This document shows, in pieces, positions 4,396-22,530 of a DNA stretch of 64,000 nt; position 1 is the first letter of the stretch, and every line of letters begins with the position of its first letter. A program made the position numbers and the translations under genes. The DNA is from a plasmid, in sequence record NZ_CP137560.1. The stretch is one strand, 5' to 3'. The notes under the pieces were generated by a model. It was given only the letters and a program-made list of their open reading frames with translations. It searched no databases and was not told the origin of the DNA.

Positions 4396-7077
4396 TTATT
4401 GTTTACTTTGTTTCAGACTGGTTGGCTTTTGTTCCGTTTCCAGGGGAGAGCACTTCTTCATGGCCTGAAGACTGGCTTCTTCCCATCTTTGAAGAGCATA
4501 GGATGCAATCGTGTTCCTCAATCTCCTGGAAACCACATCGAATATTTGTCGCTTGAGAAAATCCAGAACACATTCCCTTTGTGTCATCACCTTTTCTATG
4601 AGAACCAACTGAGCATAGATGCGGGTCAGTTCTTGCTCCACATAGCGAGCCACCTGCAAACGGTCACTGGCCAAGAGCAGATGAATCCCATCTTCATCAT
4701 CCTCATCATCTTTTGTCTGGCTTTGATAGTTGTATCTCATGGAAATGCTACAGTTCGGCATGTCATCCATCCACTTGCGCATTCTCTCGTTGACTTCATC
4801 AGTCAGTTCCTTCTCACTCTTGTTCATGTCAAGCTGCATGACCTCCAATACATTTTCAGAGCTGCTACTAGAGGTTAGCTTAAAATCCACGGACAAGATT
4901 GCTCTATGGATGCGGATGCCCAATGCATAACGAGGCTTACGAGAAAGCTTCAACGTAGCTGTGTAAGTAACTTGACTTTTGGCATCCGGACAGTAAGCGT
5001 GTCTTACGAATACATATTCATCGCTCCCCTGAATCCATTCTCCTTCATCCGCCCACTGCAAGTGGTACATGGAAGCGAGGCTTGCCATGTTGGATGGGAT
5101 GCGATAGGAACCAGAAAGATTGTCGCCCAAGTCCTTGTAATAATCATCCAAAGCCTGATTGAGCTCAGAAAGCATGCGTTCTTTCTGTTGCAAGTCCTGT
5201 TTAAGCAGGGCGTTCTCATTGGAAAGAGCATTATACTCATCATCCAACTTATTGGCCAGCGGATAATTCTTGCTAAACTTGGCCTGTTGGATCCTGGAAA
5301 GGAGATTTTTCTGCTTTGTATCATTCTCCTTGATTTCAGCTTTCAAATTCGCTATTTGCTGATTGAGCTTATTTTGTTTTTCAATGAGTGCCTTAGAGGA
5401 ATCATCCGCCAAGTTGGGCGTTGCTTCCATGGCAAAGTCCTTGGACTTTGGCCATTCCAAGGAGCCACCTTGATTACCATTTTCTTTCCAATTGAAACTT
5501 CCTTCTCCCAAGGAGGCTCCATCCTCACAGGCTGCAAGGAAACTCACAGAAGAGCAGCCTTGCATCTTCCTTTCATCGGCCATAGTATAGTAGCGTGGAT
5601 TGTCACTGCCTAGCTTGAAAGAGATAGTAGGGTGTTCGCCAAGAAACTTTTCATGCTCATCGATAACACCCTGAAGCCTTGCCTGCATTCTCTTCATGAA
5701 GGTGGTCTTGTCCATGGTCTGTGAGTCAAATATTTCCTCATAAACATCTTCCCTGATATCCCATTGGTCTCTCACCTTAACACGGTAAGAATGGAAACAA
5801 TAGCGTTCATCATAAGAATGGCTGAACAAGCCTCCTCCATAGTGGCGGTTTCTGTCCTCATGTCTCTTAACATAGGTAATGGTGCAGTCATGACCAGGGT
5901 TTTGGATATTATACTCATTACATTTAGCCTCATTCCACTCACATCTTTGGAAAAGTTTGTCCTTGAGCTCGGTATCTTCCGCTTCAGTAAGATACTTGTA
6001 GCAAGGTATTACAGAATAGTTCTGTCGTTTTTTCCCACTGGAATGGACAAACCAATCAAGATTCCATCCTGCGTCTCCCCAATTGTTATATCCGGCAGGA
6101 TTGTAGTCGCAAAGTACTCTGCTTCCAGCATCTTGCTGATAGATATACCAACGTTGGGTATAATACTGTCCTTGCATTTCTTCTATATAGGAGGAAATAT
6201 AACCAGAAATATTATAATCACTGATTTGGAATAATTTATCCACTGTGGCTTCATCTCCTTCACCAATCACGGTATAAAGAATCTCCTTGACATTAGTAGC
6301 ATTCTTGAAGGATTTGTATTTATCCCTGAAACTCTCATAGAGTCTGGCTATCTCCCTGGGCTTGGCCTTAAAGATACCTCCAATTTTGGTGACATCCTCC
6401 AGATTATGGTCAATGGCCACCTTACCTGCTTGCGCAATCACGCTGCCCAAATGCTTGAAATCATCAGCGATGTCATCCTGGGAAATTCCCTTGCCAAACT
6501 CTCCAAGCTTAGAAAAAAGACTCTTCCAGTCCACATCAGCAAGCTGCGCCAAGTCGAATAACTTTTGAAGCTTCTCATTGATTAGCAAGAATTGGATATC
6601 CTTGAAGGAGAACTTGCCATTGGTGACCACGCACTCAAACTGTTTGCAGAGGTTTTCGACATTATGGGTGGTCTTATACAGATAAGGTCCCCAATAGAGT
6701 GCATTCTCTGGCTGCTTGATCATTTTGCCAGCCACTGTGATGAACTTAGGCATGATGCCATCCTTTACCAATCTGAATATTCTATGGTAATAGTAATTTT
6801 CCTCCGTGGCAAACAAGCCTGGATTCCGGCGGGCCTCTCTCTCTTTCTTCTTGCTCAGGAAAATGCCGGCAGATGCGATACCTGCCGTTTTGTAATGCTC
6901 CAGTATTTTACTGATATGTGTAGCTGTGTTGCTCTCCTCCAAGGCTTCCGTAGCGTAGGCTGCCGACATGGCTGCCGCCGTGGTATAATCCACGTTGACT
7001 GCGTGCCAGCTCAAGGCCTGCGCCCGAGAGAACAAAAATATGGCAAAACAAACGAATGCTATGATTTTACGCATCAT
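4396..7077 (-). CDS. large secreted coiled-coil protein of unknown function, translationally coupled to traG
   Basis: ORF 4396..7134; likely start at MMRKIIAFVCFAIFLFSRAQA (~7077) directly after the traG stop at 7067; long heptad-like Q/K/E/L-rich region; no recognisable Tra homology. Confidence 0.5.
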   Translation of the reverse strand: MMRKIIAFVCFAIFLFSRAQALSWHAVNVDYTTAAAMSAAYATEALEESNTATHISKILEHYKTAGIASAGIFLSKKKEREARRNPGLFATEENYYYHRIFRLVKDGIMPKFITVAGKMIKQPENALYWGPYLYKTTHNVENLCKQFECVVTNGKFSFKDIQFLLINEKLQKLFDLAQLADVDWKSLFSKLGEFGKGISQDDIADDFKHLGSVIAQAGKVAIDHNLEDVTKIGGIFKAKPREIARLYESFRDKYKSFKNATNVKEILYTVIGEGDEATVDKLFQISDYNISGYISSYIEEMQGQYYTQRWYIYQQDAGSRVLCDYNPAGYNNWGDAGWNLDWFVHSSGKKRQNYSVIPCYKYLTEAEDTELKDKLFQRCEWNEAKCNEYNIQNPGHDCTITYVKRHEDRNRHYGGGLFSHSYDERYCFHSYRVKVRDQWDIREDVYEEIFDSQTMDKTTFMKRMQARLQGVIDEHEKFLGEHPTISFKLGSDNPRYYTMADERKMQGCSSVSFLAACEDGASLGEGSFNWKENGNQGGSLEWPKSKDFAMEATPNLADDSSKALIEKQNKLNQQIANLKAEIKENDTKQKNLLSRIQQAKFSKNYPLANKLDDEYNALSNENALLKQDLQQKERMLSELNQALDDYYKDLGDNLSGSYRIPSNMASLASMYHLQWADEGEWIQGSDEYVFVRHAYCPDAKSQVTYTATLKLSRKPRYALGIRIHRAILSVDFKLTSSSSSENVLEVMQLDMNKSEKELTDEVNERMRKWMDDMPNCSISMRYNYQSQTKDDEDDEDGIHLLLASDRLQVARYVEQELTRIYAQLVLIEKVMTQRECVLDFLKRQIFDVVSRRLRNTIASYALQRWEEASLQAMKKCSPLETEQKPTSLKQSKQ

Positions 7078-9979
7078 GATTTTTCTTGTCTTTAAAATTG
7101 AATACCTTTTGTTCCTTGAGAACAAGTTGGGCAAACTCCAGTGGCTTCTTTATGCCACTGAGTTTCCAGTCTCTGACGTAAGTCTCAAGTGCTACCTGAT
7201 AGTTCGAACGAAGCATTTTTTTATATAGCTTTAGAGCTTCCTTCTCTTGCTTTTCAGTGGTATACGCCATGTAGCACTCCGGTGGTTCCTCCACGCCAAA
7301 GACATCACCCACCAAACCGCGCTTGATGAAAACTTCCATGAAAGGAGAGCGATTGTCCTTATTGTCCAGGGCATTGATGGTAAATATCTTCTGACAGTCA
7401 TTATCTGTCAGCGCCAAGGCAGCCTTGATCTCCGAGAACTTGTCCTTGAACCTGCTCTGGTCCAAAAGCATGAACACATCTGAATTATTCACGATTGCTT
7501 CCTTAACAATAGGAGAGGAAGTAATATCCTGGATTTCCTGGGTAACAACACCTACCATCGCCCAATGCTTTCTGGCAGTCTTATAGAGATACTTGATGTA
7601 GTTGGCCATGACTGGAGTGGCGATGGCCTTCCATGCTTCCTCGATAACTAGGCATTTTCGACCTTTTTTAATACGCATTTTCTGCGTAAAGACATCCATG
7701 ATGATGAGGACAATAATAGGAAAGAGCACAGGATCATCCTTTACCTTGTCTATTTCGAAGACTATGAACTTTTCATCGAAAAGTGTACTGTCCAAGTCAT
7801 TGTTCAAAATGTTCTCCTGCTCGCCACCCTTATAATAAGGCTTCAGAATAGCCGCAAAGTCGTGGATGGGAAACTCAATGTTCTGCTGCAAGATGAGCTG
7901 AGGGATTCTCTCCAAGGCAAACTCATAATAAGAGTTGAAGGATAACTCCGCAACCTTTAAGTTCTTTCTTTGTCGTTCGATTTTATCAATCTTACGCTCA
8001 ATCCTCTGCAAGTAGTTTCTCTCCACCAACTCCGGAGTGAGTCTTTGGAGCTGTTTTTGTGCAGCTTCCTTTTCACCCTCTGTGGCAGCACTGTCAACCA
8101 CTAGGGCTTGGAGTTTACTTTTCAAACGTTCATTGCGTTCTATTGATGAATCCTGCTCCAGAGTTTGTTCCATCTTTTCTTCAAACTCTCTTTCATACTG
8201 GTCATATTTTCCATTCTTCTTATCCTCAAGAAGGATGATTTCCTTCATTTGCTTTCTTTCAATAGCATTGAAATGCTCAAAAGGATGGAAATACTCCTCA
8301 TAATACTCCGTAATAGTCTGATTGATAATGGTATCTTCTATCTTGGTAGGATAATCTGTGCCCTTGAAGAGTTGGAAGATAAGGCTCTTGAGAAAATTCT
8401 TCTTCTCGCCAAAGTTCTCCTCATACTCTATCTTGGAAATTTTGAAAGGGTTCATGGAAATAGGTTTTTCCTTACTGTAAGAGATATAAGTTCCCTCAAA
8501 GTAATGACAGATACCCTCATAGCTATCTCCAGTATCCACAATTACGATATCTGTATCTTGTTCAAAATACTGTCTCATCACGGTGTTCATAAAGAAACTC
8601 TTGCCGCTTCCAGAGGGACCAAGGACGAAGAAATTGGCATTGTTGGTATATTTAACCTTACCTTCTTTTCCTGTGGTGTCTATAGGCAATGGCACTCCTT
8701 GTCGGTCAGTATAGTAGCATTTCAAGGGTGAATCATCTCCTTTTTGCTGGTGCTCCTTATACATCAAACATAAGGCTGGCTCGGACAAGGTGAGGAACCT
8801 GTCATAATCCGGATTCAGCTTGAAGCAATTCCCAGGAAAGCTTGCCACGAAGAGTTCTAGCTGGTTATAGGCTCTCTTGGAAATGTGTATGTTGTGCTTG
8901 GAAAAGAGATTCTCCAAGGCATTTGTAGCCTTTTGGAAATCCTTACCTCCATCCAGTTTGATGACCATGTTATAGTGGGCATATACAAGCGTCTTGCCGT
9001 TGCGGGCTATTTCAGATTGCACCTTATTGATGTCCTCAACGGCAATCTGATTGTTAGAATTAGGAATGGAAGCATGTCTGTTCTTTTTCTTGTCCAGTTT
9101 CATCATCTCCTTTTTTTGGTTAGGAAGAAAGATGACCTGATTATATACCAAGGTATCTACATCACCAAGGCTATCTATGTTAGATAGTAAGTCTTCTGAG
9201 AAAGACGCATTGCCCACTTGATTCTCAGAGAAAGGACGAATCGTGCCAGGAAGTCCAGCTTGGTCCACATCCAAAAGACTATAGACCTTGACATGCTCGT
9301 TTCCCATACCTATTTCCTCGTTGGTAACCTTAAAGTTACTCATGGCTACTGTCTCATGCTTGAAGTCCATGGCAAAAAAGCGCTCGGTAAATTCCCTGCA
9401 ATCTTCTGCGCTAAGGAAACTGCATTCCACATTGTAACCTGTTAAACGGTCCGCAACTTTCTGGAGCTTGACCAAGAAATCCTTCCATTTTGCACTATCA
9501 TAGCTATGAATACTACCATTCTTACCTTTTTGGGTAACAATGAGATAAGTGAAATGCTCCGTATAAGTGCGTCCATTGAAGAAACGGAAATAAGAATCAG
9601 AAAGGAATCTTTTCGATGGATCTCTATCCTCCAAGGATGATATTTTTTTCATATCAAAGCGCTTGCGAACAAATATATCTTGCTTATGAAGGGCATAGCC
9701 TTCACCCAATATTTGCAGGATAGAGGCAAACAAAGTTGTGAAATCATAATAGCTGCTCTTCTCGGCAGAATACTTTCTTACGGGATTCGTCATTTTCAAG
9801 ATGGCAGAATAGTCTCCTCCCTTTGTATAGACAATTCCCATATCATTTGTATCCTCCACGCTGAAATAAATGTCCTCAAATATCTTGGCTCTTTTACCTC
9901 CGGTGCCAAAGGCATAAACAGAAATGGCCATACCTATGGAGATAGCCACGAGGATTGTTATCACTGCGATTGCAACCAT
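7067..9979 (-). CDS. traG: conjugative transfer ATPase TraG (VirB4-like) of Bacteroidetes conjugative transposons
   Basis: 970 aa; N-terminal TM segment; Walker A GPSGSGKS; Walker B-like CLVIEEAWKA; overall TraG/VirB4 family architecture. Confidence 0.9.
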   Translation of the reverse strand: MVAIAVITILVAISIGMAISVYAFGTGGKRAKIFEDIYFSVEDTNDMGIVYTKGGDYSAILKMTNPVRKYSAEKSSYYDFTTLFASILQILGEGYALHKQDIFVRKRFDMKKISSLEDRDPSKRFLSDSYFRFFNGRTYTEHFTYLIVTQKGKNGSIHSYDSAKWKDFLVKLQKVADRLTGYNVECSFLSAEDCREFTERFFAMDFKHETVAMSNFKVTNEEIGMGNEHVKVYSLLDVDQAGLPGTIRPFSENQVGNASFSEDLLSNIDSLGDVDTLVYNQVIFLPNQKKEMMKLDKKKNRHASIPNSNNQIAVEDINKVQSEIARNGKTLVYAHYNMVIKLDGGKDFQKATNALENLFSKHNIHISKRAYNQLELFVASFPGNCFKLNPDYDRFLTLSEPALCLMYKEHQQKGDDSPLKCYYTDRQGVPLPIDTTGKEGKVKYTNNANFFVLGPSGSGKSFFMNTVMRQYFEQDTDIVIVDTGDSYEGICHYFEGTYISYSKEKPISMNPFKISKIEYEENFGEKKNFLKSLIFQLFKGTDYPTKIEDTIINQTITEYYEEYFHPFEHFNAIERKQMKEIILLEDKKNGKYDQYEREFEEKMEQTLEQDSSIERNERLKSKLQALVVDSAATEGEKEAAQKQLQRLTPELVERNYLQRIERKIDKIERQRKNLKVAELSFNSYYEFALERIPQLILQQNIEFPIHDFAAILKPYYKGGEQENILNNDLDSTLFDEKFIVFEIDKVKDDPVLFPIIVLIIMDVFTQKMRIKKGRKCLVIEEAWKAIATPVMANYIKYLYKTARKHWAMVGVVTQEIQDITSSPIVKEAIVNNSDVFMLLDQSRFKDKFSEIKAALALTDNDCQKIFTINALDNKDNRSPFMEVFIKRGLVGDVFGVEEPPECYMAYTTEKQEKEALKLYKKMLRSNYQVALETYVRDWKLSGIKKPLEFAQLVLKEQKVFNFKDKKNHDA

Positions 9980-10007: not shown

Positions 10008-10307
10008 TTAATATTTATATGAATGGGCAAAGATAAAAATGCCCTTTGGCGTCTTTTTGGTATGGAGTCCCTTATGCTGCTTGATGAAAATCATGGTTCC
10101 ACCCACACCTACCATCGTGGTAAGGAGAATGAGTCCTACCAAAAAGCCAAAAACAATATAGCCTGCAAGAAAGGATAGCAGCCCTCCTCCCACGGCTCCT
10201 GCGGCCCAATAGATGTATCTTCCCTTCAGTCCCATGAATTCAAGGGGCTTTTGAAGCCCCTTGAAAACAGGGAAATCTGGGAATTTCTCCTGTTCTGCTG
10301 TATTCAT
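10008..10307 (-). CDS. traF: conjugative transposon protein TraF (DUF4133-like small membrane protein)
   Basis: 99 aa, two TM helices, FKGL..PLEFMGL motif; immediately upstream of traG as in CTnDOT-type operons. Confidence 0.7.
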   Translation of the reverse strand: MNTAEQEKFPDFPVFKGLQKPLEFMGLKGRYIYWAAGAVGGGLLSFLAGYIVFGFLVGLILLTTMVGVGGTMIFIKQHKGLHTKKTPKGIFIFAHSYKY

Positions 10308-10317
10308 AAACTAATGA

Positions 10318-10578
10318 TTACAGACCAAAGAACAAAGGCAAGCTCTGAGCTGCGGCAATGAGGAAGATACAAGCACCTACTATCAGCATGATGCTCTTCT
10401 TGAAATCTTGCTGATTGTTCGTAACGTACTGATAATCAACACTGATTGGAATGATAAAATGACGAAAGAAACAAATTAGGAACAACATAATTGAGAAACC
10501 CCAAAATGAAAGTATGGGAAAACAAAAATTAACATAGAAAACAACGGAATTTTTCCGATTTTGGCATTCATAAATCAA
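10318..10578 (-). CDS. traE: chimeric TraE (DUF4134) ORF: authentic traE 3' end (10318..~10403) fused in frame to a repeat-encoded surrogate N-terminus
   Basis: C-terminus SIMLIVGACIFLIAAAQSLPLFFGL matches the TraE/DUF4134 C-terminal consensus; N-terminal 58 aa are encoded by the 248-bp repeat and recur verbatim at 13234..13608. Confidence 0.5.
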   Translation of the reverse strand: MIYECQNRKNSVVFYVNFCFPILSFWGFSIMLFLICFFRHFIIPISVDYQYVTNNQQDFKKSIMLIVGACIFLIAAAQSLPLFFGL

Positions 10579-10651
10579 CTACAAAAGAAGAATCTTATAA
10601 GTAGGTACATCTGTTTTCATTTTAACAGAATATAGTGATATGCAAGATAAA
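10404..10651. repeat. ~248-bp direct repeat, copy A (left end of the insertion in traE); carries a traE-like 5' coding segment
   Basis: Near-identical (a handful of mismatches) to 13434..13682; identity starts right after a TCTTGA at 10398..10403 and ends at gataaag. Confidence 0.85.
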
Positions 10652-10822
10652 GAGGGAAAGAGTCACTGTAAATCATACAAAAATCAATGGGATTTCCAAT
10701 TAGACAAATTATTTTCGCTTTTTATAATGATTTTCGGATTTAACAAACGATATTTGGAGAAGAATGAGTATTTTTGCAACCGAAAACAAAAATAATATAC
10801 GCAATGGCTTACGGAAAATCGT

Positions 10823-11020
10823 TTGTCAAGATTCCAAAATAGAATCACTCCGTCTTGGATAAAAGATATGGGGGAAAACGAGATTTTTGTGTTTGCCAGT
10901 AATGTCAACGGTTATCATGGAGGTGGACCTCATGTGAATTTTGAAACACTGAAGCCAAATCCCAACAAACCTGGAAAGATGATGGTTGATCAAAATTATC
11001 ATGTTTTCATAACCGAATAA
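10823..11020 (+). CDS. hypothetical small protein
   Basis: First ORF of a same-strand run of short AT-rich ORFs between the repeats. Confidence 0.25.
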   Translation: MSRFQNRITPSWIKDMGENEIFVFASNVNGYHGGGPHVNFETLKPNPNKPGKMMVDQNYHVFITE

Positions 11021-11024
11021 TAGA

Positions 11025-11285
11025 ATGAAAAAAGTCACATTAAATGTTCCGAATTATTCCCCTGATACCGGAGTGGCACTCAATTGGGAAGGTAATTTCA
11101 CAATTAAGGTCTCCGATATAAATGGGAGCGTCTCAATTGAGGCTAATACCGAGGGATTAGTTTCTTTAGCAAATCACTTGCTAAATTTATCCCAATCATC
11201 GGTTCCTATAGGAACTCATCTTCATCTTGATGAGTACAACTCTCTTGAAGAAGGATCTTTAGATTTAATAATCGAAAAGATTTGA
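11025..11285 (+). CDS. hypothetical small protein (immunity-protein-like size)
   Basis: 86 aa, 4-bp spacing from the upstream ORF. Confidence 0.3.
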   Translation: MKKVTLNVPNYSPDTGVALNWEGNFTIKVSDINGSVSIEANTEGLVSLANHLLNLSQSSVPIGTHLHLDEYNSLEEGSLDLIIEKI

Positions 11286-11348
11286 TTCCAATAAGTCTGT
11301 TTATGGGTCTGACAATACGATCCATAAACAAATCTAATAGATTAACAG

Positions 11349-11699
11349 ATGATTGAAGATATGTTCTTTTGCGTTCTTTCAATTGTAGTGGGAGGCTATT
11401 TAGTGTCTCAAAAATTAAGAGCTATTTATAATAGACTCCCCCTTTCTCTAAAAGATAAGATTTCTTTTGGGGAAGGACTCATCCTAATTATATCTGGGTT
11501 CATTGCATTATATGTGAAATCGGCTATACCAATTAATGCTTTGCTTTTTGGGTGTTTCCTACTTCCGAAAATGTATCAACAAGAAAAGTATTGGAATGCT
11601 CGTCGTTTTACAACCGCATACATAATGCATTGTAGCGGTTGGATTTTAAGTATAGGGCTTATTATCTATGGTATTCTCCAATTATTTCAGCCTATATAA
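11349..11699 (+). CDS. hypothetical small membrane protein
   Basis: 116 aa with 3-4 predicted TM helices. Confidence 0.35.
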   Translation: MIEDMFFCVLSIVVGGYLVSQKLRAIYNRLPLSLKDKISFGEGLILIISGFIALYVKSAIPINALLFGCFLLPKMYQQEKYWNARRFTTAYIMHCSGWILSIGLIIYGILQLFQPI

Positions 11700-11740
11700 A
11701 TTGTAAGAACATAGATTAGTTCAACAATAAAACAAATTCA

Positions 11741-12118
11741 GTGAGGCTATGTTTAAAAAAAATTGAAAATCGAATTGTTATCACACCGCCTTCAGGCATG
11801 ACTGTTGAGCAATTTGATGAGATGGTTATTAAAACAGGTAATAGCTTTGGAAATAATCCCAATATTACATACTGTTTAGAGCCATTCGAACAAACACAAG
11901 GTAATTGTAATTCAAGTTCAAGTACGTTGCTTTATAAAGCGGGGGTTCCTTTAAGTAGGATAAAGGATTTGAGGAAGCAAATATCAGGTTTTGTTTGGGG
12001 ATTTGGTGATATTAAACCGTGGACAGTAGAGGAACAGTCAAAAGCTGTTCAGAGGCAGAGGGAATTCGACCAACTCCGTAATGAAATGATGAACACAATC
12101 ATCCTTAACAAATATTAA
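11741..12118 (+). CDS. hypothetical protein
   Basis: 125 aa; stop overlaps start of next ORF (taaATG). Confidence 0.3.
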   Translation: MRLCLKKIENRIVITPPSGMTVEQFDEMVIKTGNSFGNNPNITYCLEPFEQTQGNCNSSSSTLLYKAGVPLSRIKDLRKQISGFVWGFGDIKPWTVEEQSKAVQRQREFDQLRNEMMNTIILNKY

Positions 12119-12595
12119 ATGAGAAAATTGAGTTTTAAAATGGTCATAAGAGCATATTTAATATGTGCTCTTATGACATCAATATTAGGAATTATATCAT
12201 GCAGTGTTCATGACATAATAAATTGGTTTCCAATCGTATTACTTTATGCTTGGATAATATTGTCTCCAATATCTATTTTAGCATTGATAACTGTATATTT
12301 ATTGGGAGTTCAAAGAGATTGGATTTGTAAGATACCGTTAATTTGCTTATGCGCATTTATAGTATATTTTATAAACCTAAACTCATCAGAATCTTATTTG
12401 ATTAATTTTTTTGCAACCCAAACCGTACCATATGACCTTCTATATTACAATAATGGAATAGAGATAAGGGTCAATGACACTATTTTTTCTATTTTCACAT
12501 GGGTATTATCGTATTTTATATTAGTATTGCTTATTGTTATATCTACAATTATGTATAGATTTTTTAAAAAGCATAGCAAAATAAAATTATTCTAA
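12119..12595 (+). CDS. hypothetical polytopic membrane protein
   Basis: 158 aa, at least four hydrophobic helices. Confidence 0.35.
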   Translation: MRKLSFKMVIRAYLICALMTSILGIISCSVHDIINWFPIVLLYAWIILSPISILALITVYLLGVQRDWICKIPLICLCAFIVYFINLNSSESYLINFFATQTVPYDLLYYNNGIEIRVNDTIFSIFTWVLSYFILVLLIVISTIMYRFFKKHSKIKLF

Positions 12596-12639
12596 AATAA
12601 AGTGTTCTCATTAGTGATGATACTAAATCATTCTGTACA

Positions 12640-13434
12640 ATGCTCACCATCCAGCACAGCGGCCCAGACGGTGAGATTACCACCACCTTCGAGTACGACG
12701 GCATACAGCGCCTTGTTCGTGTCACCGACATGGAGGGCAATGTAACGACCTCTACTTACGACATGGGTGACCGCCGTACTGAGGTGAACCATCCTGCAAG
12801 CGGCATCACAAGTTTCACTTATGATGCGCTCGGCAATGTGCAGACTAAGCAGACTGCCAACCTTGCCAAGGAAGGAAAGTTCATTACTTACGATTACGAC
12901 TATCAGCGTCTGACGGGTATCAACTACCCAGACCATCCGGAGAACAACGTGAAGTATTACTATGGTGGTCGCAACGCCTCTCAGAACCGTATCGGTAGAT
13001 TGATGCTCCGCGAGGACGGAACAGGTGCCATTGAGTATTTCTATGGCAAGATTGGCGAGGTGACGAAGACCCGCCGCACGATGATTGTGCCTAACCAGGC
13101 GATAGCAACCTACGTGACGCAATGGACTTACGACAGCCACAACCGTCTGTTGGAGATGATTTATCCTGATGAGGAGAAAATCACTTACTCTTACAATCTC
13201 GGTGGTCAGCTTGAAAAGGTCCATGGCTACAAGTCATACGGCTATGACTATGTGAGCAAGATTGGCTATGACAAGTTCGAGCAGCGCAGCTACCTGAAGT
13301 ATTGCAACGGCGCGGAGACATTCTACACCTTCGACAACCGCCGCCGTCTCAGCAATCTCGCGGTCAACAGCGGCAACACGTCCATCATGGACAATGACTA
13401 TACGTTTGACGCGGTGAGCAATGTCCTCTCTTGA
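12640..13434 (+). pseudogene. RHS/YD-repeat protein fragment (internal repeat region only; no N-terminus, no C-terminal tip)
   Basis: Repeated YD motifs (FEYDGIQRL, STYDMGDRR, FTYDALGNV, ITYDYDYQRL, WTYDSHNRL, YTFDNRRRL); abrupt GC-rich block in AT-rich surroundings; terminated by stop inside the TCTTGA junction with repeat B. Confidence 0.7.
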
Positions 13435-13682
13435 ATCTTGCTGATTGTTCGTAACGTACTGATAATCAACACTGATTGGAATGATAAAATGACGAAAGAA
13501 ACAAATTAGGAACAACATAATTGAGAAAACCCCCAAAAAAAGTATGGGAAAACAAAAATTAACATGGAAAACAACGAAATTTTTCCGATTTTGGCATTCA
13601 TAAATCAACTACAAAAGAAGAATCTTATAAGTAGGCACATCTGTTTTCATTTTAACAGAATATAGTGATATGCAAGATAAAG
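13434..13682. repeat. ~248-bp direct repeat, copy B (left end of the integrase-bearing element)
   Basis: Near-identical to 10404..10651; preceded by TCTTGA (13429..13434). Confidence 0.85.
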
Positions 13683-13818
13683 GTAACTATTCAGTTCACC
13701 ACTACACAGAATGATAAGATTGCTTAATAAATACGAAATAGTATAAACTTGTTTAATAAAAATAACAACATGTTTGTTTTTGGACTATATTTACAACAAA
13801 TTTTAAAATTTATCAATT

Positions 13819-14178
13819 ATGTATATGGCTAATACTGCTACGGATACGTTGTCAACGGAAACCATGAATCCTCCAAAAGGTTCTTATGTCAATATGGTTG
13901 GTCAAGCGACAGGGAAAAGAGTAAGTGGAACTATCTCCAATGTTTCATATGATGTTCTTAATGCAAGTAAGAAAGTGTTGCTTCAAGATGTTTATCTTGC
14001 GACATATACTTCAAAAAGCGGTGATAGTGGGGGTATTGTATATGCTCTACGTTCAGCACACAATCAACGTCTAACTGTAGGTATAAATATAGGTTCTGCA
14101 AAAATTAACCGTACTACTTATGGCATGTGTGTAAAAGCATCGAATATAAATAGAATTTTTGGACTTACAAGATACTAA
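13819..14178 (+). CDS. orphan C-terminal half of a trypsin/chymotrypsin-fold serine protease domain (possible toxin-tip fragment)
   Basis: KSGDSGGIVY (GDSGG serine nucleophile motif) followed by GINIGSA, but no upstream His/Asp barrel; only 119 aa. Confidence 0.4.
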   Translation: MYMANTATDTLSTETMNPPKGSYVNMVGQATGKRVSGTISNVSYDVLNASKKVLLQDVYLATYTSKSGDSGGIVYALRSAHNQRLTVGINIGSAKINRTTYGMCVKASNINRIFGLTRY

Positions 14179-14187
14179 AGGGCTGTC

Positions 14188-14697
14188 ATGAATTTCTTAT
14201 TTAAGACATTTTGCATTATGGTCATATTCACGATGTTCGTGGATATGACCGCTCTAAGTAATAACATAACGAATAGAGATGGTTTATGGCGTGTTGATTC
14301 AGACTCCGTCACAATTACCACAAGCTATAGTGAGAAACAGCCAGAAAAATTAAATGTATGCATTTATAATCACAGCAATTCGACGATATATATAGGGCGA
14401 ACTTATGGATTGTTGATGCAAGTAGATGGGGAATGGAAATACATTGCCAAAGGTAGAAATCAAAAGTGCATAACTATATGGCCAGCGTCAAAACGTAACT
14501 TTCAAGTCAGTCTATGCGCTAAGAAAATAAAAAGCTCCTCTGGATGGGCATATAGAACAGATTCACTTTACAAAGTAAGATTTGACATGTATGACAGCGA
14601 TGGCGTTTTTATTGACAAAATGGACTCTGATTTCAAAGTTTCTGGTAATATTGTTTGGCATCTGACTGACGGATTAGTGATTATACATTTAGATTGA
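14188..14697 (+). CDS. secreted/membrane-anchored hypothetical protein (candidate immunity partner)
   Basis: N-terminal hydrophobic signal/anchor MNFLFKTFCIMVIFTMFVDMTALS; 10-bp spacing from the upstream ORF. Confidence 0.4.
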   Translation: MNFLFKTFCIMVIFTMFVDMTALSNNITNRDGLWRVDSDSVTITTSYSEKQPEKLNVCIYNHSNSTIYIGRTYGLLMQVDGEWKYIAKGRNQKCITIWPASKRNFQVSLCAKKIKSSSGWAYRTDSLYKVRFDMYDSDGVFIDKMDSDFKVSGNIVWHLTDGLVIIHLD

Positions 14698-14706
14698 ATA
14701 TTCCAA

Positions 14707-15111
14707 ATGCGACATCTCAATTCTTCAATATACGTAGATTGGTTGGATCCATCAATGCCCGCTCGTACATGTGGAAGAACAGCAGAAAATATAAAAGAGA
14801 AAATAAAAAAATATGATAAGTTTATACTTGTTGCTACAGAAGGTGCTATTGCGTCAAAATGGTGCAATTGGGAATTAGGCTTTGGTGATGCTCAAAAGTA
14901 TGCTTACGGTAAAATAGCCTTATTTCCTATCCGTTATGACGAAAAGGATTGGTCAGAAAGTGAATACTTAGAACTATATCCTGTTATAGGATATATTGAT
15001 AGTTGTCAATATTCGGATGAGTTTAATCAATCCCTTTTTACAGGTTATTATGTTTTTTGTCATTATGGCACGAAGAAGGCAATAAAATTGGTTGATTGGT
15101 TATCGAGATAA
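14707..15111 (+). CDS. TIR-like domain protein (stand-alone, 134 aa)
   Basis: KFILVATEGAIASKWCNWEL closely resembles the TIR alphaC-region motif (cf. [20 protein letters not shown] in TLR TIR domains); size matches a single TIR domain. Confidence 0.4.
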   Translation: MRHLNSSIYVDWLDPSMPARTCGRTAENIKEKIKKYDKFILVATEGAIASKWCNWELGFGDAQKYAYGKIALFPIRYDEKDWSESEYLELYPVIGYIDSCQYSDEFNQSLFTGYYVFCHYGTKKAIKLVDWLSR

Positions 15112-15169
15112 TAATAGAAATCGCCTAACTTTAAGTGCAAACTTAATGTTAGGCAGTAACTCGTCTATC

Positions 15170-15772
15170 TCATATATAGTTCTGTGCAATTATCATTCCA
15201 ACACCTCCTGCAACAACAAAGATACCAATCGTGAAGAAAAAACAAAAGAACCATTGTGCATAGTGACCGAGATAGCAACCATCATATTCCTTGTAGCGTT
15301 CACGGACTTTCTTCCGTTCATCGGCAAACATGGAATTGACCTCACGGATATGCATCTGCATCTGTGCGGTCATCCATTGGCGTTCTTTGGCAAACAGTTC
15401 TTGGATTTTCTGCCAGTCAGCATCATTGACATTTACAGACACCTTTAATTTAGTGGAAGCATTCTCCAAGACCTTGTCTATGTGCTGATTGATGGTATCT
15501 ACCTTTTTGCCGATGGTAGTCACAGCACCACCCAATTGAACTTCCGAACGCTGATACTGCTGAATGGCAGACTCCAGTTCAAGTGTGGCATTGATGAAGG
15601 TGTCGGTTGCCTTATCAATGTCCTTACTCAACTGCTTCAACTCAGGAACACGGTTTACAAGTCCGTCTTCGGCTTGCTGTTCCTCGACCTCGTTTTCGAC
15701 ATCATTCATCATGTTGTCGAAGTCGGATCTTTCTTCTGTGTCTATGTTTATCTTGCTTTTTCTGATTGCCAT
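15170..15772 (-). CDS. hypothetical coiled-coil protein with C-terminal TM anchor, downstream of relaxase
   Basis: 200 aa, acidic coiled-coil N-terminus, hydrophobic C-terminal ~35 aa; 12-bp gap after relaxase. Confidence 0.4.
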   Translation of the reverse strand: MAIRKSKINIDTEERSDFDNMMNDVENEVEEQQAEDGLVNRVPELKQLSKDIDKATDTFINATLELESAIQQYQRSEVQLGGAVTTIGKKVDTINQHIDKVLENASTKLKVSVNVNDADWQKIQELFAKERQWMTAQMQMHIREVNSMFADERKKVRERYKEYDGCYLGHYAQWFFCFFFTIGIFVVAGGVGMIIAQNYI

Positions 15773-15784
15773 ATTGTTATTGAT

Positions 15785-17017
15785 TTATCGGTGGAAACTT
15801 CTACTGCGTGGTTTAGGCTTGCACATGGAATGAGCCATCTGTGCGCAACGGTGGGCAAACTTCCAGTCATCTTCATCGTCTTTCTTTCCCCAACCAGATT
15901 CAGGAGAAGAACCGCCACCGCCACATGACTCAGACATGGAAGTGGCTGCATCAATGTACCCTGCAAACAACAGCATTGCTACATGAGCGACATTCTCCGT
16001 TGTCGCTATATCATTATCCTCTGGAATCTGAGCCTCATTAGTAAAGACATCTTTGACAGAGTTCGGAATCCACACCTTCTTGACTCCATCGCCAATGTTA
16101 ATTTGGAATGCTGTTTTTGAAGGTTGAACTTGTGCCTTTGGTTGTGATGCTGTTGAAGTCTGAGCGACAGGACGAACTGGGCGAGGCGTTGAAGCAACGG
16201 ATGGTGAAACAGGCTTTTCCTTGACCTGTGTAGGTTGTGGGTGCAGTTTCTTCCATGTGTCTTCAATCTTTGACACCATGTACTTTCTGCCAATCTCAGA
16301 AGCCTTGAACACGGAAGCGTTCTTGCCGACTGTATAGCCGACAAGTTTCCGCTGCTTGTCGTAACGAGGTTTAACCTCATAGCCTTTCATGCGCAACAGA
16401 TTGAAATATCTGTCAATGTTGAACTGCTGCATATCTTTGAGGATATGTTCGCAATCCTCCGCAAGTTCAGCCTTTCGCATATTCCGAATCTCCTGCGGTT
16501 GTTCCCATCCATGGCGCTTATTGATGATTTCCGCAGCCTTCATTGCCCGAAGGTGAATATCGTGTACATCATTGGTCTTACCCTCCATATCCACACGACA
16601 ACAATCAATGTGAAGGTGCAGCATTCCAGACTTGGAATCAGAGTGCAGTCCGCCCACATTCATAGAATTGGTGAAGTTGGTCTTTATTTCATTGGAGAAA
16701 CCGTTGGGCGAAAGTCCAACAGAATCCAAAACTCCCAATGCTTCGTCTTGGAGGTTTGCCCAATCTGCCATCGTGAAGTTTGCAGACTCTTCCTTTGATG
16801 GGGAAAGTACAAAAGTGGTCATGAACCTTTCCAACTTTCTGCCAACCGTCCTTTCCGCCTGATGATACTGGCAATGATGCTTCATCATGTACCAGATGGC
16901 GGTAGGGTCAAGACCATCGGGCATGTTGTTCACCTTGACCGTCTTTGCCTTCTCCTTTTCCAATGCGTACCTTACGGAATTGCCTCCATACGATACGACC
17001 TTTGCGAGCATAATCAT
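15785..17017 (-). CDS. mobilisation relaxase (MobA/VirD2-type relaxase domain, Bacteroides MobB-like)
   Basis: N-terminal MIMLAKVV.YGGNSVRYALEKEK motif (relaxase motif I with Tyr), HLHID His-cluster motif, Pro/Ser-rich linker. Confidence 0.8.
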   Translation of the reverse strand: MIMLAKVVSYGGNSVRYALEKEKAKTVKVNNMPDGLDPTAIWYMMKHHCQYHQAERTVGRKLERFMTTFVLSPSKEESANFTMADWANLQDEALGVLDSVGLSPNGFSNEIKTNFTNSMNVGGLHSDSKSGMLHLHIDCCRVDMEGKTNDVHDIHLRAMKAAEIINKRHGWEQPQEIRNMRKAELAEDCEHILKDMQQFNIDRYFNLLRMKGYEVKPRYDKQRKLVGYTVGKNASVFKASEIGRKYMVSKIEDTWKKLHPQPTQVKEKPVSPSVASTPRPVRPVAQTSTASQPKAQVQPSKTAFQINIGDGVKKVWIPNSVKDVFTNEAQIPEDNDIATTENVAHVAMLLFAGYIDAATSMSESCGGGGSSPESGWGKKDDEDDWKFAHRCAQMAHSMCKPKPRSRSFHR

Positions 17018-17424
17018 GATTGTTCCTTTGATTTTGTCTGTACGTTTGTTGCGATATTCTCTTCAATGCTATACCAATGTTGGATAAGTCCTGCAACGGC
17101 ATCAATCCACCAACGCATGAACTTCTCATTCTTGAAGAACCGAGCCTTTTCCTCAGCCGTTTTCTTGGATAGCACGTTGCTGATTTTTATCAAATCCGTC
17201 CTTGCGATGGCGAGAGAGTTGAGAGCGTCCACCTCTTCCTTGGTGAGCCTCATGCGTGGACGGTGCTTTAAGCCAGTCTCAACGACATAGCGGCTCAGGC
17301 TTAACCCACACTCCTTGGCATGTGTCTGGAGACGTTTCAATTCCTCTTCCGTGCATCGGTAGGTATGGACTTCCGTAGGCGGTTTTCTTATGATGTTCTT
17401 CTTTCTCATTTGTTCTTGTCTCAA
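17014..17424 (-). CDS. MobC-family relaxosome accessory protein
   Basis: 136 aa; overlaps relaxase start by 4 bp; RHH-like ...CTEEELKRLQTHAKECGLSLSRYVVE... typical of small Bacteroides Mob proteins. Confidence 0.65.
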   Translation of the reverse strand: MRQEQMRKKNIIRKPPTEVHTYRCTEEELKRLQTHAKECGLSLSRYVVETGLKHRPRMRLTKEEVDALNSLAIARTDLIKISNVLSKKTAEEKARFFKNEKFMRWWIDAVAGLIQHWYSIEENIATNVQTKSKEQS

Positions 17425-17503
17425 ATTAAAATGGGATGATTACAAGCATCTTACAAAGGTGGTCACGACTGCGAGCCTGCGAGTAGTCCGAGAAACTTTT
17501 AGG

Positions 17504-17534
17504 AATACAGAAAGACGGACACGGCTTCTGTATT
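17504..17534. promoter_or_regulatory. candidate oriT hairpin: AATACAGAA-(13 nt)-TTCTGTATT inverted repeat in the mobC-upstream intergenic region
   Basis: Perfect 9-bp inverted repeat in the 270-bp gap upstream of mobC, where oriT is found in NBU-type elements. Confidence 0.3.
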
Positions 17535-17694
17535 ACAAAAGGATTTCTCGAAAAGTACCTATAAAATGACGGCACTTTTAACAGCCTCCGTCCCCAAGGC
17601 TGCTTAAACGTATAACAGTTGGGCGGTAGCCTATGGCGGTTAATCGTCCTTTGGGATGATTTTTATGTATAGTGGCTTATTTGCCTCTGTATGC

Positions 17695-18519
17695 CTATTG
17701 ATTGCCGTTATGGTATTCGTTAGGTTTGTAGCCATTGGCATTAGAACCGTTCGACTGTTGTGTTTGACCTCCAAACTGATGCTGTGGATATGTGTTGTGC
17801 TCTCCCTCATTCTGTTTGGCATCTGCTTCTTGCAGGGAAGAAGGATTGCCAACAGACTGTCTGGAGTAGTTTTGCTGTGGAGAAATTCCACCAGTAATAG
17901 CATCGGAAAGATTGCCATTAGTTCCGATCTTACCCACGCTTCCATTATCATTAGATGAAGCCGAATTTAGGGAAGAAGAAATATCTGCCGTAGAAGAATT
18001 GCCCTTTTTGTCTGTATCGGATATTCCATTGGAAAAATGCCCATCTTCCTTGTCCGACTTTGTATCAACCCCCGTTGTCGTAACAATTACTCTTACTTGT
18101 GGAACTTCCGTGTGGATGATTGCAGAGCCATCAGTATTGCGCTTCAATGAAAATCCGTTCTTGAAAAATCTTCCGTCCACATACCAACCAGAGAGGGAAT
18201 GCAGGGTAATGATGCGGTTGTCTCCAACTTTTTGTGAAGAGGAAATCCCCACAGCCTCCATAGCCTGTAAAAGTTTGGGTACGGTCTTGCGGTCTTTATC
18301 CCAGAGTTTGGCAAGTTGGGTATTGTCAACCATACATTGCCCACACAAGATTTCCACTTGTTGGGTCTTGCTGATAGGTACAAGTGTTGTTTCACGTTCG
18401 GCAAGAGAGGCAAGAGACATGAAGCATTCCATGCGGTCAATCTTGTACTTCTTGCAGCGAAGATACTCCATCTGTACATCGGACAGCGTGAAGTAGTAAT
18501 GTATCTTTTGTTTATCCAT
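17695..18519 (-). CDS. conserved mobile-element backbone protein (paralog of 552..1202)
   Basis: Motif LAKLWDKDRKTVPKLLQAMEAVGI shared with 552..1202; Ser/Gly/Asn/Gln-rich C-terminal tail. Confidence 0.5.
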   Translation of the reverse strand: MDKQKIHYYFTLSDVQMEYLRCKKYKIDRMECFMSLASLAERETTLVPISKTQQVEILCGQCMVDNTQLAKLWDKDRKTVPKLLQAMEAVGISSSQKVGDNRIITLHSLSGWYVDGRFFKNGFSLKRNTDGSAIIHTEVPQVRVIVTTTGVDTKSDKEDGHFSNGISDTDKKGNSSTADISSSLNSASSNDNGSVGKIGTNGNLSDAITGGISPQQNYSRQSVGNPSSLQEADAKQNEGEHNTYPQHQFGGQTQQSNGSNANGYKPNEYHNGNQ

Positions 18520-18583
18520 CTTCTGTAAATTTTGAATATTATAACCATAAATGGCAAGACTGTTTTTCTCAGTAAAGAGAAAA

Positions 18584-18901
18584 TCATCTGTGCCGTCCTC
18601 TCCTTGGGGAAATGTCCTCTGCTATAACATAGAGCTCGCCTTGCAACCTGTCATTAGAATGGCTGCTTAATCGTGAAATGCACTCAATGCAGACAGACTG
18701 GGCAAGAAGTTTTCTTCTTCCGACAGTTGCTTCATCATTGATGCCCTTGTTGGCTCCGCATTGTTCGGCAAGCTGATTGAAAGCATCACGCATCCGAAAG
18801 TAGCCGTTGCCAGTATTGATGTAGCTCACGGCAAGGTCAGCGACATTCGCCAACTTGCTTCTGTACTCCTCATGGGAAATATCGTCCTTCATCATCGCCA
18901 T
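18584..18901 (-). CDS. hypothetical protein, mobile-element backbone
   Basis: 105 aa; 2-bp gap from the HTH gene. Confidence 0.35.
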   Translation of the reverse strand: MAMMKDDISHEEYRSKLANVADLAVSYINTGNGYFRMRDAFNQLAEQCGANKGINDEATVGRRKLLAQSVCIECISRLSSHSNDRLQGELYVIAEDISPRRGRHR

Positions 18902-18903
18902 GT

Positions 18904-19221
18904 CTATTTACAAAGTTCACTCATGTGCTTGGTCGCTGCAGCCTTGGTCTCAGCCTCGGACATACTGCGGTTCTGGCGCATCCAGTTCAAAAGTTCGGAC
19001 TTCTCAAAGTAGATAATCTTGCCGTTGGGACGGAAGAACGGAAGTTCATGCTTGTGTGTCATCTTGTAGAGACTACTCTTTGATATACCCATGAATAAGG
19101 CTGCTTCCTCCAGTGTCAATACTTGCTTGGCATCACGGAGTAGGTTCTCCATTATCCCAATGCGGTGCTCATGTGACTCTACCTTCAAGAGAAGAGTCTC
19201 GGTGTCGATAGTTTTGTTCAT
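18904..19221 (-). CDS. helix-turn-helix DNA-binding protein, excisionase-like
   Basis: LTLEEAALFMGISKSSLYKMTHKHELPFFRPNGKIIYFEKSELLNWMRQ; paralog of 1626..1958. Confidence 0.6.
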   Translation of the reverse strand: MNKTIDTETLLLKVESHEHRIGIMENLLRDAKQVLTLEEAALFMGISKSSLYKMTHKHELPFFRPNGKIIYFEKSELLNWMRQNRSMSEAETKAAATKHMSELCK

Positions 19222-19360
19222 TATCCTGTAATTTATTGTTTGTAATTCGTTGTACTGCTTGTTTTGAAAGTGTAGTCCCCCAAGACAGAGAGAATTCCCT
19301 GCCCGAAAAATGGGGACTACAAAAGTGAAATTTACTGGTTGTTATCCTGAAAAGTTCCGT

Positions 19361-20677
19361 TTACTTGTTATCCTGTAAAAAAGTTATTCTGCGTGGATGG
19401 GTGTTGGTGGCTGCTGTCCGCTTTGTCCTCGGTATTTGCTTGTTCTCCTCACGCTGTTTGCGACCTCGAAAGGCTTTCTTCGTGTTGTCAACAGCCTTGA
19501 CCTTTTCATTCGTCAGCACATCTGCATAGATGGCGGTGGATTTGAGCGACTTGTGTCCCATCAGTTTCTTGGTAGTCTCAATGTTGCCGGTAACCGCCTG
19601 CACCAAAATTCCGAATGTATGTCGGGAACAGTGAAAAGAGATATTCTTCTCAATGCCCACCTTTTTGGCTATCCTTTTAAGGGCAGCATCCACATTAGCC
19701 TTAGCAGGAAGGTGGAACACAAAATCATCATCACCTTTGGGTGGCATCCATGACAAGGCGGTATTGCCGATTGGTACGGCATTGAGAGCCTTTGTTTTCT
19801 TTTGGACGATTACAAGCGTGTTCGTTTCCTTGTTTCTCTTGATGTCACTCCACCGCAGAGCCTTGATGTCGCTTATACGAAGTCCTGTCAGACAGGCGAA
19901 ACCGAAAGCCTTTTGTGTCTCTGCAACTCCTGGACTTCTCTCATCTGAAGCCATGAACCTTTTCAGTTCATCGGGAGTGAGATACTGCTTATGTGATGAC
20001 TTTGGCTTGGGAAAGATGTCAGACTTCTCCAACAGGTAGAAAGGGTTAGCCTTCAATTTACCGAACTTGACAGCCTTGTTGAATACCGCCACTGTGCGCT
20101 GTTGAACATTGTGAAGCGAGCCTTCACACAAAGGCTTGGCTTCAACTCGTACATACTTCTGTGGTACATAGTCGTTCTTCAGCCAAAGGAAGAAAGCCTT
20201 GAACCATTCCTTGTCGAACTTCCTCAGAGTGATGTGAGGTCTGCGCTTGTTGGCAAGGAACTCGCTCATTAGGTATTTCAAATACTTTGACTGGTCAACA
20301 ATAGCCTTGGAGTAGTCTGTATTGTCGCTCATCCAGTCGATGTAAGTCTGGATCCAGTCCATGACTTCGGGAGACTCGTCATTGGGGATTTCCTTCACAA
20401 TCATCAAGTGACCTACCTCTGGGATGGTCTCTGGATGAAGAATACGCTCTGCCCTTATCTGGTGAGCACGTTGCAATGTTTCTTCGTTTCTTGCTTTGGT
20501 CTCTGCATCAACCTCTGGCAACAAATAGAGAGAAAGAAATTCAAACTTGCGCTTGCCACCATCGTAGATGTCAAGATACAAGCTTATGTTGTCGTTGGCA
20601 AGTGCCTTTTGTCTGATAGTTATTGTCATGTCTATATATATATTCGTTGTCAATGATTTATGTGAACATACCGTCAA
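19361..20677 (-). CDS. tyrosine site-specific integrase with N-terminal arm-DNA-binding domain
   Basis: N-terminal ISLYLDIYDGGKRKFEFLSLYL arm-binding-type domain; C-terminal HCSRHTF...LMGH...STAIYADV (R-H-R-Y catalytic signature). Confidence 0.85.
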   Translation of the reverse strand: MTVCSHKSLTTNIYIDMTITIRQKALANDNISLYLDIYDGGKRKFEFLSLYLLPEVDAETKARNEETLQRAHQIRAERILHPETIPEVGHLMIVKEIPNDESPEVMDWIQTYIDWMSDNTDYSKAIVDQSKYLKYLMSEFLANKRRPHITLRKFDKEWFKAFFLWLKNDYVPQKYVRVEAKPLCEGSLHNVQQRTVAVFNKAVKFGKLKANPFYLLEKSDIFPKPKSSHKQYLTPDELKRFMASDERSPGVAETQKAFGFACLTGLRISDIKALRWSDIKRNKETNTLVIVQKKTKALNAVPIGNTALSWMPPKGDDDFVFHLPAKANVDAALKRIAKKVGIEKNISFHCSRHTFGILVQAVTGNIETTKKLMGHKSLKSTAIYADVLTNEKVKAVDNTKKAFRGRKQREENKQIPRTKRTAATNTHPRRITFLQDNK

Positions 20678-21830: not shown

Positions 21831-21978
21831 GATGTATGAAGTGTTATTTTGTTTTTGTATTCTGCTACATTGGAGGGTCTTTCTCCCTCTTGTTGAAAGT
21901 TCATGTCAGATATGGTTTCCTATGCTGACATTTGCTTTTCTTTCTCTTCCCTTACTTCGGAAAACTGATGTAAAGATA

Positions 21979-22024
21979 AGAAAACAAACCGAGAAACGAG
22001 AAACAAAACGGAAACAAGAAACAG
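21979..22024. repeat. cluster of 4-5 direct (A/G)GAAAC(A/G) repeats; candidate integrase arm-type sites at the int-proximal element end
   Basis: aagaaaacaaaccGAGAAACGAGAAACaaaacgGAAACaaGAAACag between the integrase start and the traE junction. Confidence 0.4.
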
Positions 22025-22028
22025 TCTT

Positions 22029-22469: not shown

Positions 22470-22530
22470 TGCTAATTGTTTCTTAGATAAAATTAAATGA
22501 TTAATATTGTTTTTAAATGAAAATTGATTC

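Follow-up and report, generated by a model that had tools for sequence, protein, structure and literature searches.

The 64,000-nucleotide (nt) stretch of plasmid record NZ_CP137560.1 analysed here (the window) contains, at 10653-13433, a block of genes from an rhs locus. Most probably this block is a passenger on an integrative mobilizable element (IME), held between two copies of the left attachment arm of that element, and represents an orphan-immunity island; we put the probability of this reading at about 0.7. The block (hereafter the module) is a mosaic piece of Prevotellaceae rhs orphan arrays and comprises two intact immunity genes, two dead toxin tips, a membrane protein and a shell fragment. 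The DNA adjoining it on the right (13427-22174, ~8.7 kb) is a complete IME, and the direct repeat which brackets the module is the left attachment arm (L) of this IME, present twice.

The repeat pair 10404-10652/13434-13682 (249 nt, 97% identical, spacing of 3030 nt) is the sole long direct repeat returned by a repeat search of the whole window. Its homology reaches back to 10396/13427 once a 1-nt indel is allowed (249-257 nt overall). The same two-copy structure is found at different sites in dozens of independent contigs. The contigs compared are designated L001-L088; the composite, i.e. both arms with the module and the rest of the IME, was recovered by exact-protein look-ups in many independent gut-metagenome contigs. 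A search of the GTDB species representatives with one exact 22-mer of the repeat gave zero matches, and PLSDB contains no match to the region. Five short + strand open reading frames (ORFs) and an Rhs ORF lie between the repeat copies, and the bracketed DNA is arranged as follows:

10397-10652, + strand: outer left arm copy (L, 'a' variant), with core TTCTTGAAATCTTGCT at 10397-10412
10653-10909, + strand: constant leader after the outer L, 257 nt, with a TAnnTTTG -7-like motif at ~10767
10910-11020, + strand: toxin-tip remnant 1, the last ~36 codons of an Rhs-family toxin, inside ORF 10823-11020 (65 amino acids)
11025-11285, + strand: intact Imm32-family immunity gene, 86 amino acids (Pfam Imm32, 3.3e-16)
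11349-11699, + strand: 116-amino-acid membrane protein with three hydrophobic segments (hydropathy), a candidate immunity gene
11766-12118, + strand: toxin-tip remnant 2, the last ~116 codons of a 366-amino-acid Rhs C-terminal toxin gene, in an ORF starting from GTG 11741 (11741-12118, 125 amino acids)
12119-12595, + strand: intact gene of a 158-amino-acid membrane protein with four hydrophobic segments (hydropathy), in the cognate-immunity position for toxin 2
12640-13428, + strand: Rhs/YD shell fragment truncated at both ends, GC 0.52 (Pfam RHS_repeat, 1.2e-15)
13427-13682, + strand: inner left arm copy (L, 'b' variant), with core TCTCTTGA-ATCTTGCT at 13427-13442

The origin of the module can be seen from its counterparts in chromosomal arrays. 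The segment 10910-11330 is 99% identical to the 3' end of two giant SpvB/TcdB/FG-GAP/Rhs toxin genes (3019 and 3314 amino acids, in L011 and L017) plus Imm32; in these loci an identical Imm32 gene stands 4 nt after the toxin gene. The segment 11766-12853 is 97% identical to the arrays of L001 and L003, where an identical copy of the 158-amino-acid gene begins 1 nt after a 366-amino-acid gene for an Rhs C-terminal toxin (Rhs-CT). Remnant 2 shares 94-95% amino-acid identity with the C-terminus of the L001/L003 genes, annotated TEN_YD-shell, and the upstream half of its toxin domain is gone. Chromosomal arrays match about 1 kb of the module at 99% identity. For the Rhs fragment, the identity is 92% with codons ~2112-2341 of the 3019-amino-acid Rhs gene of L011 and 95% with the orphan fragments of L002 and L008; no full-length rhs gene was found in the 64-kb window. 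The Imm32 and 158-amino-acid genes are orphans, intact genes standing behind toxins cut to their last ~36 and ~116 codons. Identical copies of the Imm32 protein are present in 10,703 blocks of the collection, those of the 116-amino-acid protein in 1,435 and those of the 158-amino-acid protein in 359; distant homologues of the 116-amino-acid protein have similar length and 42-72% identity.

The initial annotation of this region had described two tandem copies of an element end about 3 kb apart, the lack of recombinase and mobilization genes between them, five short same-strand ORFs with two polytopic membrane proteins among them, and an Rhs fragment with a GC content markedly above that of its surroundings. 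All these points hold: the element end is the IME left arm, a Pfam search of the module ORFs gives no recombinase or mobilization family, the membrane proteins are the 116- and 158-amino-acid products, and the Rhs ORF (12640-13434) has a GC content of 0.516 versus 0.323 for the remainder of the module (0.26-0.37 for the five + strand ORFs). The Rhs fragment had also been said to lack a start and a toxin tip, which is correct in part. An ATG is present; it aligns to an internal position (about residue 2110) of the 3019-amino-acid Rhs protein, and the fragment is thus truncated at both ends. The ORF comprises 264 codons, and its stop codon (13432-13434) lies inside the repeat core. The likeness of the small genes to immunity genes gains from the Imm32 match and from the position of such genes directly behind Rhs toxins elsewhere. 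Two outcomes that would have spoken against the annotation, namely small ORFs conserved nowhere else and an Rhs fragment with no association to the repeat, did not occur: conservation of the ORFs is wide, and the repeat is the exact point at which the Rhs fragment ends.

The whole insert (10397-22174, ~11.8 kb) splits the traE (DUF4134) gene of a Bacteroidales-type integrative and conjugative element (ICE). The two halves of the gene are recognized by Pfam as profile positions 58-93 at 10318-10404 and positions 2-70 at 22029-22469. An imperfect direct repeat of 16 nt, TTCTTGAnATCyTGCT, marks the element ends and lies at 10397, 13427 and 22159. The following features adjoin or follow the arms listed above:

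10318-10396, - strand: traE 3' fragment, left flank of the insertion (Pfam DUF4134 match of ORF 10318-10578)
13683-15169, + strand: the element's own cargo, common to module-less and composite forms
13819-14178, + strand: cargo gene, GDSGG protease remnant (C-terminal serine-protease piece)
14188-14697, + strand: cargo gene, Big_14 Ig-like protein
14707-15111, + strand: cargo gene, N-terminally truncated ThsB-like TIR protein (PADLOC 6e-47, profile positions 59-189 of 190)
15170-17424, - strand: mobilization genes (a 200-amino-acid gene, a 410-amino-acid MbpB-like relaxase candidate and a 136-amino-acid NikA/MbpA-like protein)
18904-19221, - strand: excisionase-like HTH_17 gene (TIGR01764 'excise' match)
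19361-20677 and 20658-21830, - strand: two tandem tyrosine integrases (Pfam Arm-DNA-bind_5, Phage_int_SAM_5 and Phage_integrase)
21831-22174, + strand: right attachment arm (R), with core TTCTTGACATCCTGCT at 22159-22174, then the traE 5' part
22159-22469: traE 5' part, right flank of the insertion, directly after the R arm

The element thus unites tyrosine integrases with relaxase/mobilization genes and has no conjugation apparatus; a short common core is present at both its ends and is shared by its insertion sites. The mobilization proteins match Pfam NikA-like (7e-12) as well as NCBIfam MbpB (7e-23, the 410-amino-acid protein) and MbpA (5e-15), both NCBIfam scores lying under the curated cut-offs. 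An exact look-up of the 200-amino-acid protein gave no matches. The R arm (sequence GGACTAAGATATTCTTGA...) resembles L in the 16-nt core only, as judged by sequence comparison, and the R core is kept across loci. Both L copies and R contain 4-5 occurrences per 260 nt of the motif GA(2-4)CA[AG], which was picked post hoc, versus 0.34 expected. These three clusters are the densest in the 64 kb, with no clusters elsewhere in the window, which suggests that the motif, post hoc as its choice was, may represent candidate arm-type binding sites of the integrases.

The composite probably moves as a unit. The full structure (L, module, L, cargo, mobilization genes and, in part of the contigs, integrases) was recovered at 97-99% identity in many independent gut-metagenome contigs. 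Its outer left flanks are formed by several divergent traE alleles and by at least four unrelated sites (a Mem_trans-adjacent chromosomal site, an mnmE-adjacent site, a MatE-side site and an insertion sequence (IS) transposase gene), so that a mobile element carries the island to different genomic locations. The ICE genes flanking the composites are only 68-75% identical between loci, in contrast to 97% for the composite itself. A single origin followed by transposition of the whole composite unit is the simplest reading of these data. The IME backbone is present in Segatella, Prevotella and Leyella genomes.

The junctions bear on how the module may have become attached to the element. All outer junctions are located between CTTCTTGAA and ATC. 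All composite copies share one inner junction (...GAGCAATGTCCTCTCTTGAATC), with a 1-nt deletion in one contig (L025/L059) as the exception. Here the homology to other Rhs genes runs to ...GCGGTGAGCAATGTCCTC (...AATGTCCTC) and then switches to TCTTGA-ATCTTGCTG, the arm core, while the other Rhs genes continue beyond the junction as ...AGCGTGGTAAACGG. An Rhs frame running up to the inner L core is the mark expected when the IME inserts at a secondary site in an orphan Rhs fragment. It was the element that contributed the core found at this junction, since the same b-type core CTCTCTTGAATC is found in the module-less L031 and L039, which are inserted in traE. As the Rhs end bears no resemblance to the R arm, the module does not qualify as a two-ended satellite.

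The 'a' and 'b' variants of the arm are defined by clustered diagnostic positions at which its two copies differ. Copy 2 is mostly of b type; copy 1 is of a type in about two thirds of the loci and of b type in the rest, regardless of the insertion site. This pattern indicates gene conversion between the arm copies. The a-type L plus leader is also found in L066 and L077. Duplication of the arm by slippage in situ was considered and rejected, as the clustered lineage-specific differences between the copies recur in separate elements.

Forms of the element without the module are represented by L031, L032, L037 and L039, in which a single arm is joined directly to the element's own cargo. The traE allele occupied by L031 is also that of the composites L023 and L027. 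In L032 the arm joined to the cargo is of a type, which is the expected product of recombination between the two arms of a composite. The same contig has a group II intron reverse transcriptase (4681-6336, RVT_N/RVT_1/GIIM) that interrupts traG of a related ICE. The relatives of the IME from Prevotella, Segatella copri, S. hominis, Leyella stercorea and others have backbones 91-95% identical to that of the window and a diverged arm; no duplicated arm was found among the relatives in the GTDB species representatives. Their L-proximal slot is filled with unrelated cargo (restriction-modification genes, an AraC regulator, a nucleotidyltransferase; L041, L042, L045, L047 and L048), i.e. this slot is a general cargo hot spot.

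We propose the following origin of the composite. An IME of b type would have inserted at a secondary site in an orphan Rhs fragment located downstream of an a-type left arm and leader, which together with the fragment may have lain in the cargo array of a related element or beside its remnant. The integrases would then have excised the DNA from the outer left arm to the R arm, giving a composite that moves as one unit and has since spread. Recombination between the two left arms could delete the module again. The intact immunity genes are probably transcribed from the leader, whose predicted promoter is the Bacteroidetes -7-like TAnnTTTG, and they would protect the recipient from Rhs-family toxins of competing Prevotellaceae. 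The toxin genes would be dead remnants, and the module as a whole a mobile orphan-immunity island similar to those of acquired interbacterial defence (AID).

Several observations weigh against this reading. Neither an excision product nor a circular junction was observed, and no a-type element with its own backbone was recovered among the compared contigs, so the order of events should be taken as probable only. The right junction of the composite is seen in traE insertions only (L033, L035), and the contigs from chromosomal sites end or are decayed before R. The predicted immunity function of Imm32 and the 158-amino-acid protein is based on family membership and gene position. The full-length C-termini of both toxins gave no Pfam or PDB match by sequence search. 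The 116-amino-acid protein matched no family in Pfam, NCBIfam and PADLOC profile searches, and the contexts of its distant homologues, which lie on very short contigs, provide no clue to its function. Finally, in L066/L067, L081 and L088 the module continues into other arrays; these contigs could be real recombinants or assembly chimeras. The suspicion of chimerism arises because the switch occurs exactly where the module is 99% identical to chromosomal arrays, and these contigs, considered as cases of a module without the second arm, were set aside as possible chimeras.

The initial annotation had offered two explanations for the double element end. One of them, capture of flanking rhs DNA by aberrant excision, is right with respect to the rhs origin of the DNA; simple excision leaves the divergent second arm unexplained. 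The other was accretion of a satellite similar to a cis-mobilizable element (CIME): L plus module would be a non-autonomous element with its own ends that integrated in tandem at the site regenerated by the IME. We consider it improbable. The unit does have an L arm, contains no mobility genes and travels with the IME, and module-less and module-bearing forms occupy the same traE allele. However, at its right edge lies Rhs coding sequence that does not resemble the R arm, which leaves it with two ends of L type; the inner junction hardly varies between copies, pointing to one origin and not to recurrent site-specific accretion; and the unit was never recovered alone between two attachment sites. 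A somewhat more remote alternative is the capture of cassettes in the manner of integrons or of recombinase-associated AID (rAID) arrays, where the integrases would insert toxin/immunity cassettes singly at the L arm, downstream of the leader/promoter. It would account for L077, in which the same arm and 257-nt leader are followed by different cassettes before Imm32, the divergence from the window beginning at about 10922, 13 nt past the leader. It would also suit the contigs whose match to the window stops at 12770 or 12836, where arrays of chromosomal type take over, as well as the relatives with unrelated cargo in the L-proximal slot. Against it, a repeat search revealed no repeated intergenic or attC-like sequences between the module ORFs, the recombinases are neither adjacent to the cassettes nor co-oriented with them, and no relative has more than one L copy. 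The cassette boundaries moreover coincide with homology breakpoints shared with chromosomal rhs arrays, which fits homologous recombination or chimeric assemblies.

It is also conceivable, although rather unlikely, that the L arm with the leader is a platform for expression and capture, and that this IME lineage repeatedly collects and swaps orphan immunity cassettes from host rhs arrays. It would do so by inserting into Rhs fragments at secondary sites and by recombining with the arrays already resident; the arm would supply the split traE with a replacement 5' end, and the IME would ride the ICE without necessarily disabling it. If true, Prevotellaceae would possess a mobile counterpart of the rAID arrays. 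The notion that the locus holds nothing beyond host sequence, i.e. a continued chromosomal rhs gene, spurious ORFs and a repeat created by local duplication or assembly, is hardly credible. The small size and AT-richness of the ORFs are all that can be brought forward for it. The ORF products recur identically in hundreds to thousands of independent assemblies, one of them matches the Imm32 family, the two-copy structure is found in dozens of independent contigs at different sites, and the arm copies differ at fixed diagnostic positions.

Orphan immunity islands are known from other gut Bacteroidales: AID-1 consists of orphan immunity genes against type VI secretion system (T6SS) effectors on an ICE, and AID-2 of such genes on a transposable element (Ross et al., bioRxiv 10.1101/471110; Nature 2019). 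As in AID-1 and AID-2, clusters of orphan immunity genes and pseudogenised remnants are carried here by mobile elements and spread among strains and species of gut Bacteroidales. Unlike those islands, the present one belongs to Prevotellaceae hosts (Segatella, Prevotella, Leyella), and the predicted protection is directed against Rhs-family toxins and not against the T6SS effectors of B. fragilis GA3. A small mobilizable element serves as the carrier, and its duplicated attachment arm encloses the module.

A 5' XerD-like recombinase, low-GC genes that run co-directionally and repetitive sequences between the genes define the arrays named rAID-1 (Ross et al., bioRxiv 10.1101/471110). The locus resembles them in its low-GC co-directional array, in small predicted immunity genes of mixed origin, in toxin remnants and in its occurrence in gut Bacteroidales; at least two co-directional genes with GC ≤41% are present (0.26-0.37 in the module). 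It differs in that the integrases lie 6-8 kb away on the opposite strand and have the Arm-DNA-bind_5/SAM_5 architecture, no 5' co-directional XerD-like recombinase being present, and in that the module has no intergenic repeats. The resemblance to acquired-defence arrays noticed in the initial annotation is thus correct at the level of predicted function, where the locus is similar to AID islands, and fails for rAID-1 in particular. The locus is neither an rAID-1 system nor an integron. An integron assignment of the integrases was tried and rejected: their NCBIfam integron-integrase scores (58 and 41 bits) are far under the 265-bit cut-off, and attC-like repeats are missing.

Arrays of orphan Rhs-CT/immunity pairs downstream of rhs genes were reportedly described by Poole et al. 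in 2011. The window has the same unit, made up of an Rhs core fragment, a toxin tip and an immunity gene, and DNA 97-99% identical to it is found in chromosomal arrays (L001-L020). In contrast to such arrays, the window segment resides on an IME inside an ICE and has no full-length rhs gene beside it; so little is left of both toxin tips that recombination with a main rhs gene could not reactivate them.

The mobilizable transposons of Bacteroidales known as non-replicating Bacteroides units (NBUs), and similar IMEs, carry one or more tyrosine integrases and small mobilization genes and have no conjugation genes. The element described here shares with them the integrases, small mobilization genes, a short core at both ends, several targets and a variable cargo slot; it differs in the two tandem integrases, in the preferred target in ICE traE and in the duplication of the left arm around captured DNA. 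CIMEs of streptococcal ICEs undergo accretion and cis-mobilization and keep the attL and attR of their family. The module is similar to a CIME as a block without mobility genes that owes its movement to its position within the outermost recombination sites of an autonomous neighbour. Unlike a CIME, this passenger is bounded by two sites of L type, the inner one being a scar left in an Rhs gene. A literature search returned no paper that describes this element.

AID islands as such and the capture of cargo by integrative elements are already established. What is new is the Prevotellaceae hosts, the Rhs-type toxins and the bracket of two left arms that renders the passenger mobile. Work on Bacteroides has shown that mobile orphan-immunity islands decide which strains survive, and the locus indicates that the same strategy is used in Prevotellaceae (Segatella and Prevotella being major gut taxa) against toxins of the Rhs family. 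It also offers a concrete route by which chromosomal immunity genes could come onto a mobilizable element, namely insertion into an Rhs fragment followed by excision via the outer second left arm. Since the immunity genes are widespread (identical Imm32 in >10,000 blocks), strain competition and engraftment could be affected by their presence on an element that jumps between ICEs and chromosomes.

Some contigs add details on the arm and the module. At positions 1-300 of L083 the last ~15 nt of the Rhs fragment are followed by the arm and then by the leader, which has the look of tandem arm-module units. This may be a true tandem unit or a join made by the assembler via the 255-nt repeat; the arm is longer than the assembler k-mer, so an artefact is possible. 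The left arm also holds the start of an outward-reading ORF (MIYECQNRKN...) that crosses the outer junction. In the window it is fused to the 3' part of traE, giving an 86-amino-acid ORF with two hydrophobic segments (10318-10578, - strand); at other sites it reads into the local flank (8703-9140 in L024/L026, 2282-2812 in L066). This ORF start might act as an outward promoter or as a replacement 5' end for the split traE. Two DUF4134 (traE-like) genes stand side by side at 22029-22884, of which the IME splits the first only, and the intact paralogue (22531-22884) might compensate for the split gene.

The copies at the Mem_trans site (L021/L022/L028/L029/L034) keep the arms of the composite and the cargo, have a truncated relaxase and no integrases, and are followed by chromosomal genes. 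L036 is a decayed simple element with the same pattern: arm and cargo are kept, the relaxase is truncated, the integrases are missing and chromosomal genes come next. In these decayed copies the cargo is retained after mobility was lost. As for the cargo genes, a full 434-amino-acid version of the GDSGG protease with the same Big_14 partner is present in L050, and no ThsA gene was found near the ThsB-like TIR gene. Three contigs bearing the IME (L047, L054 and L056) were binned as metagenome-assembled genomes of Roseburia, Lachnospira and Duodenibacillus; these labels are probably binning errors for a mobile element and do not denote its true hosts.

The neighbourhood on the left of the insert belongs to the conjugation operon of the ICE:

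7067-9979, - strand: TraG P-loop protein of the ICE conjugation operon
10008-10307, - strand: small ORF in the DUF4133/TraF position known from related loci

To the right of the ICE (36000-64000) ordinary chromosomal-type genes are located (RtcB, Memo/AMMECR1, radical SAM, carboxylesterase and TerC), along with a C10 peptidase that has a Spi inhibitor domain and is sorted by the type IX secretion system (T9SS). Proteins identical to the 116-amino-acid ORF product and to RtcB are WOZ82978.1 and WOZ83008.1, respectively, which makes Segatella hominis the probable host. Because the identical RtcB resides on a Segatella hominis 'plasmid' and the largest contig bearing it is 317 kb long, this replicon is probably a secondary one.

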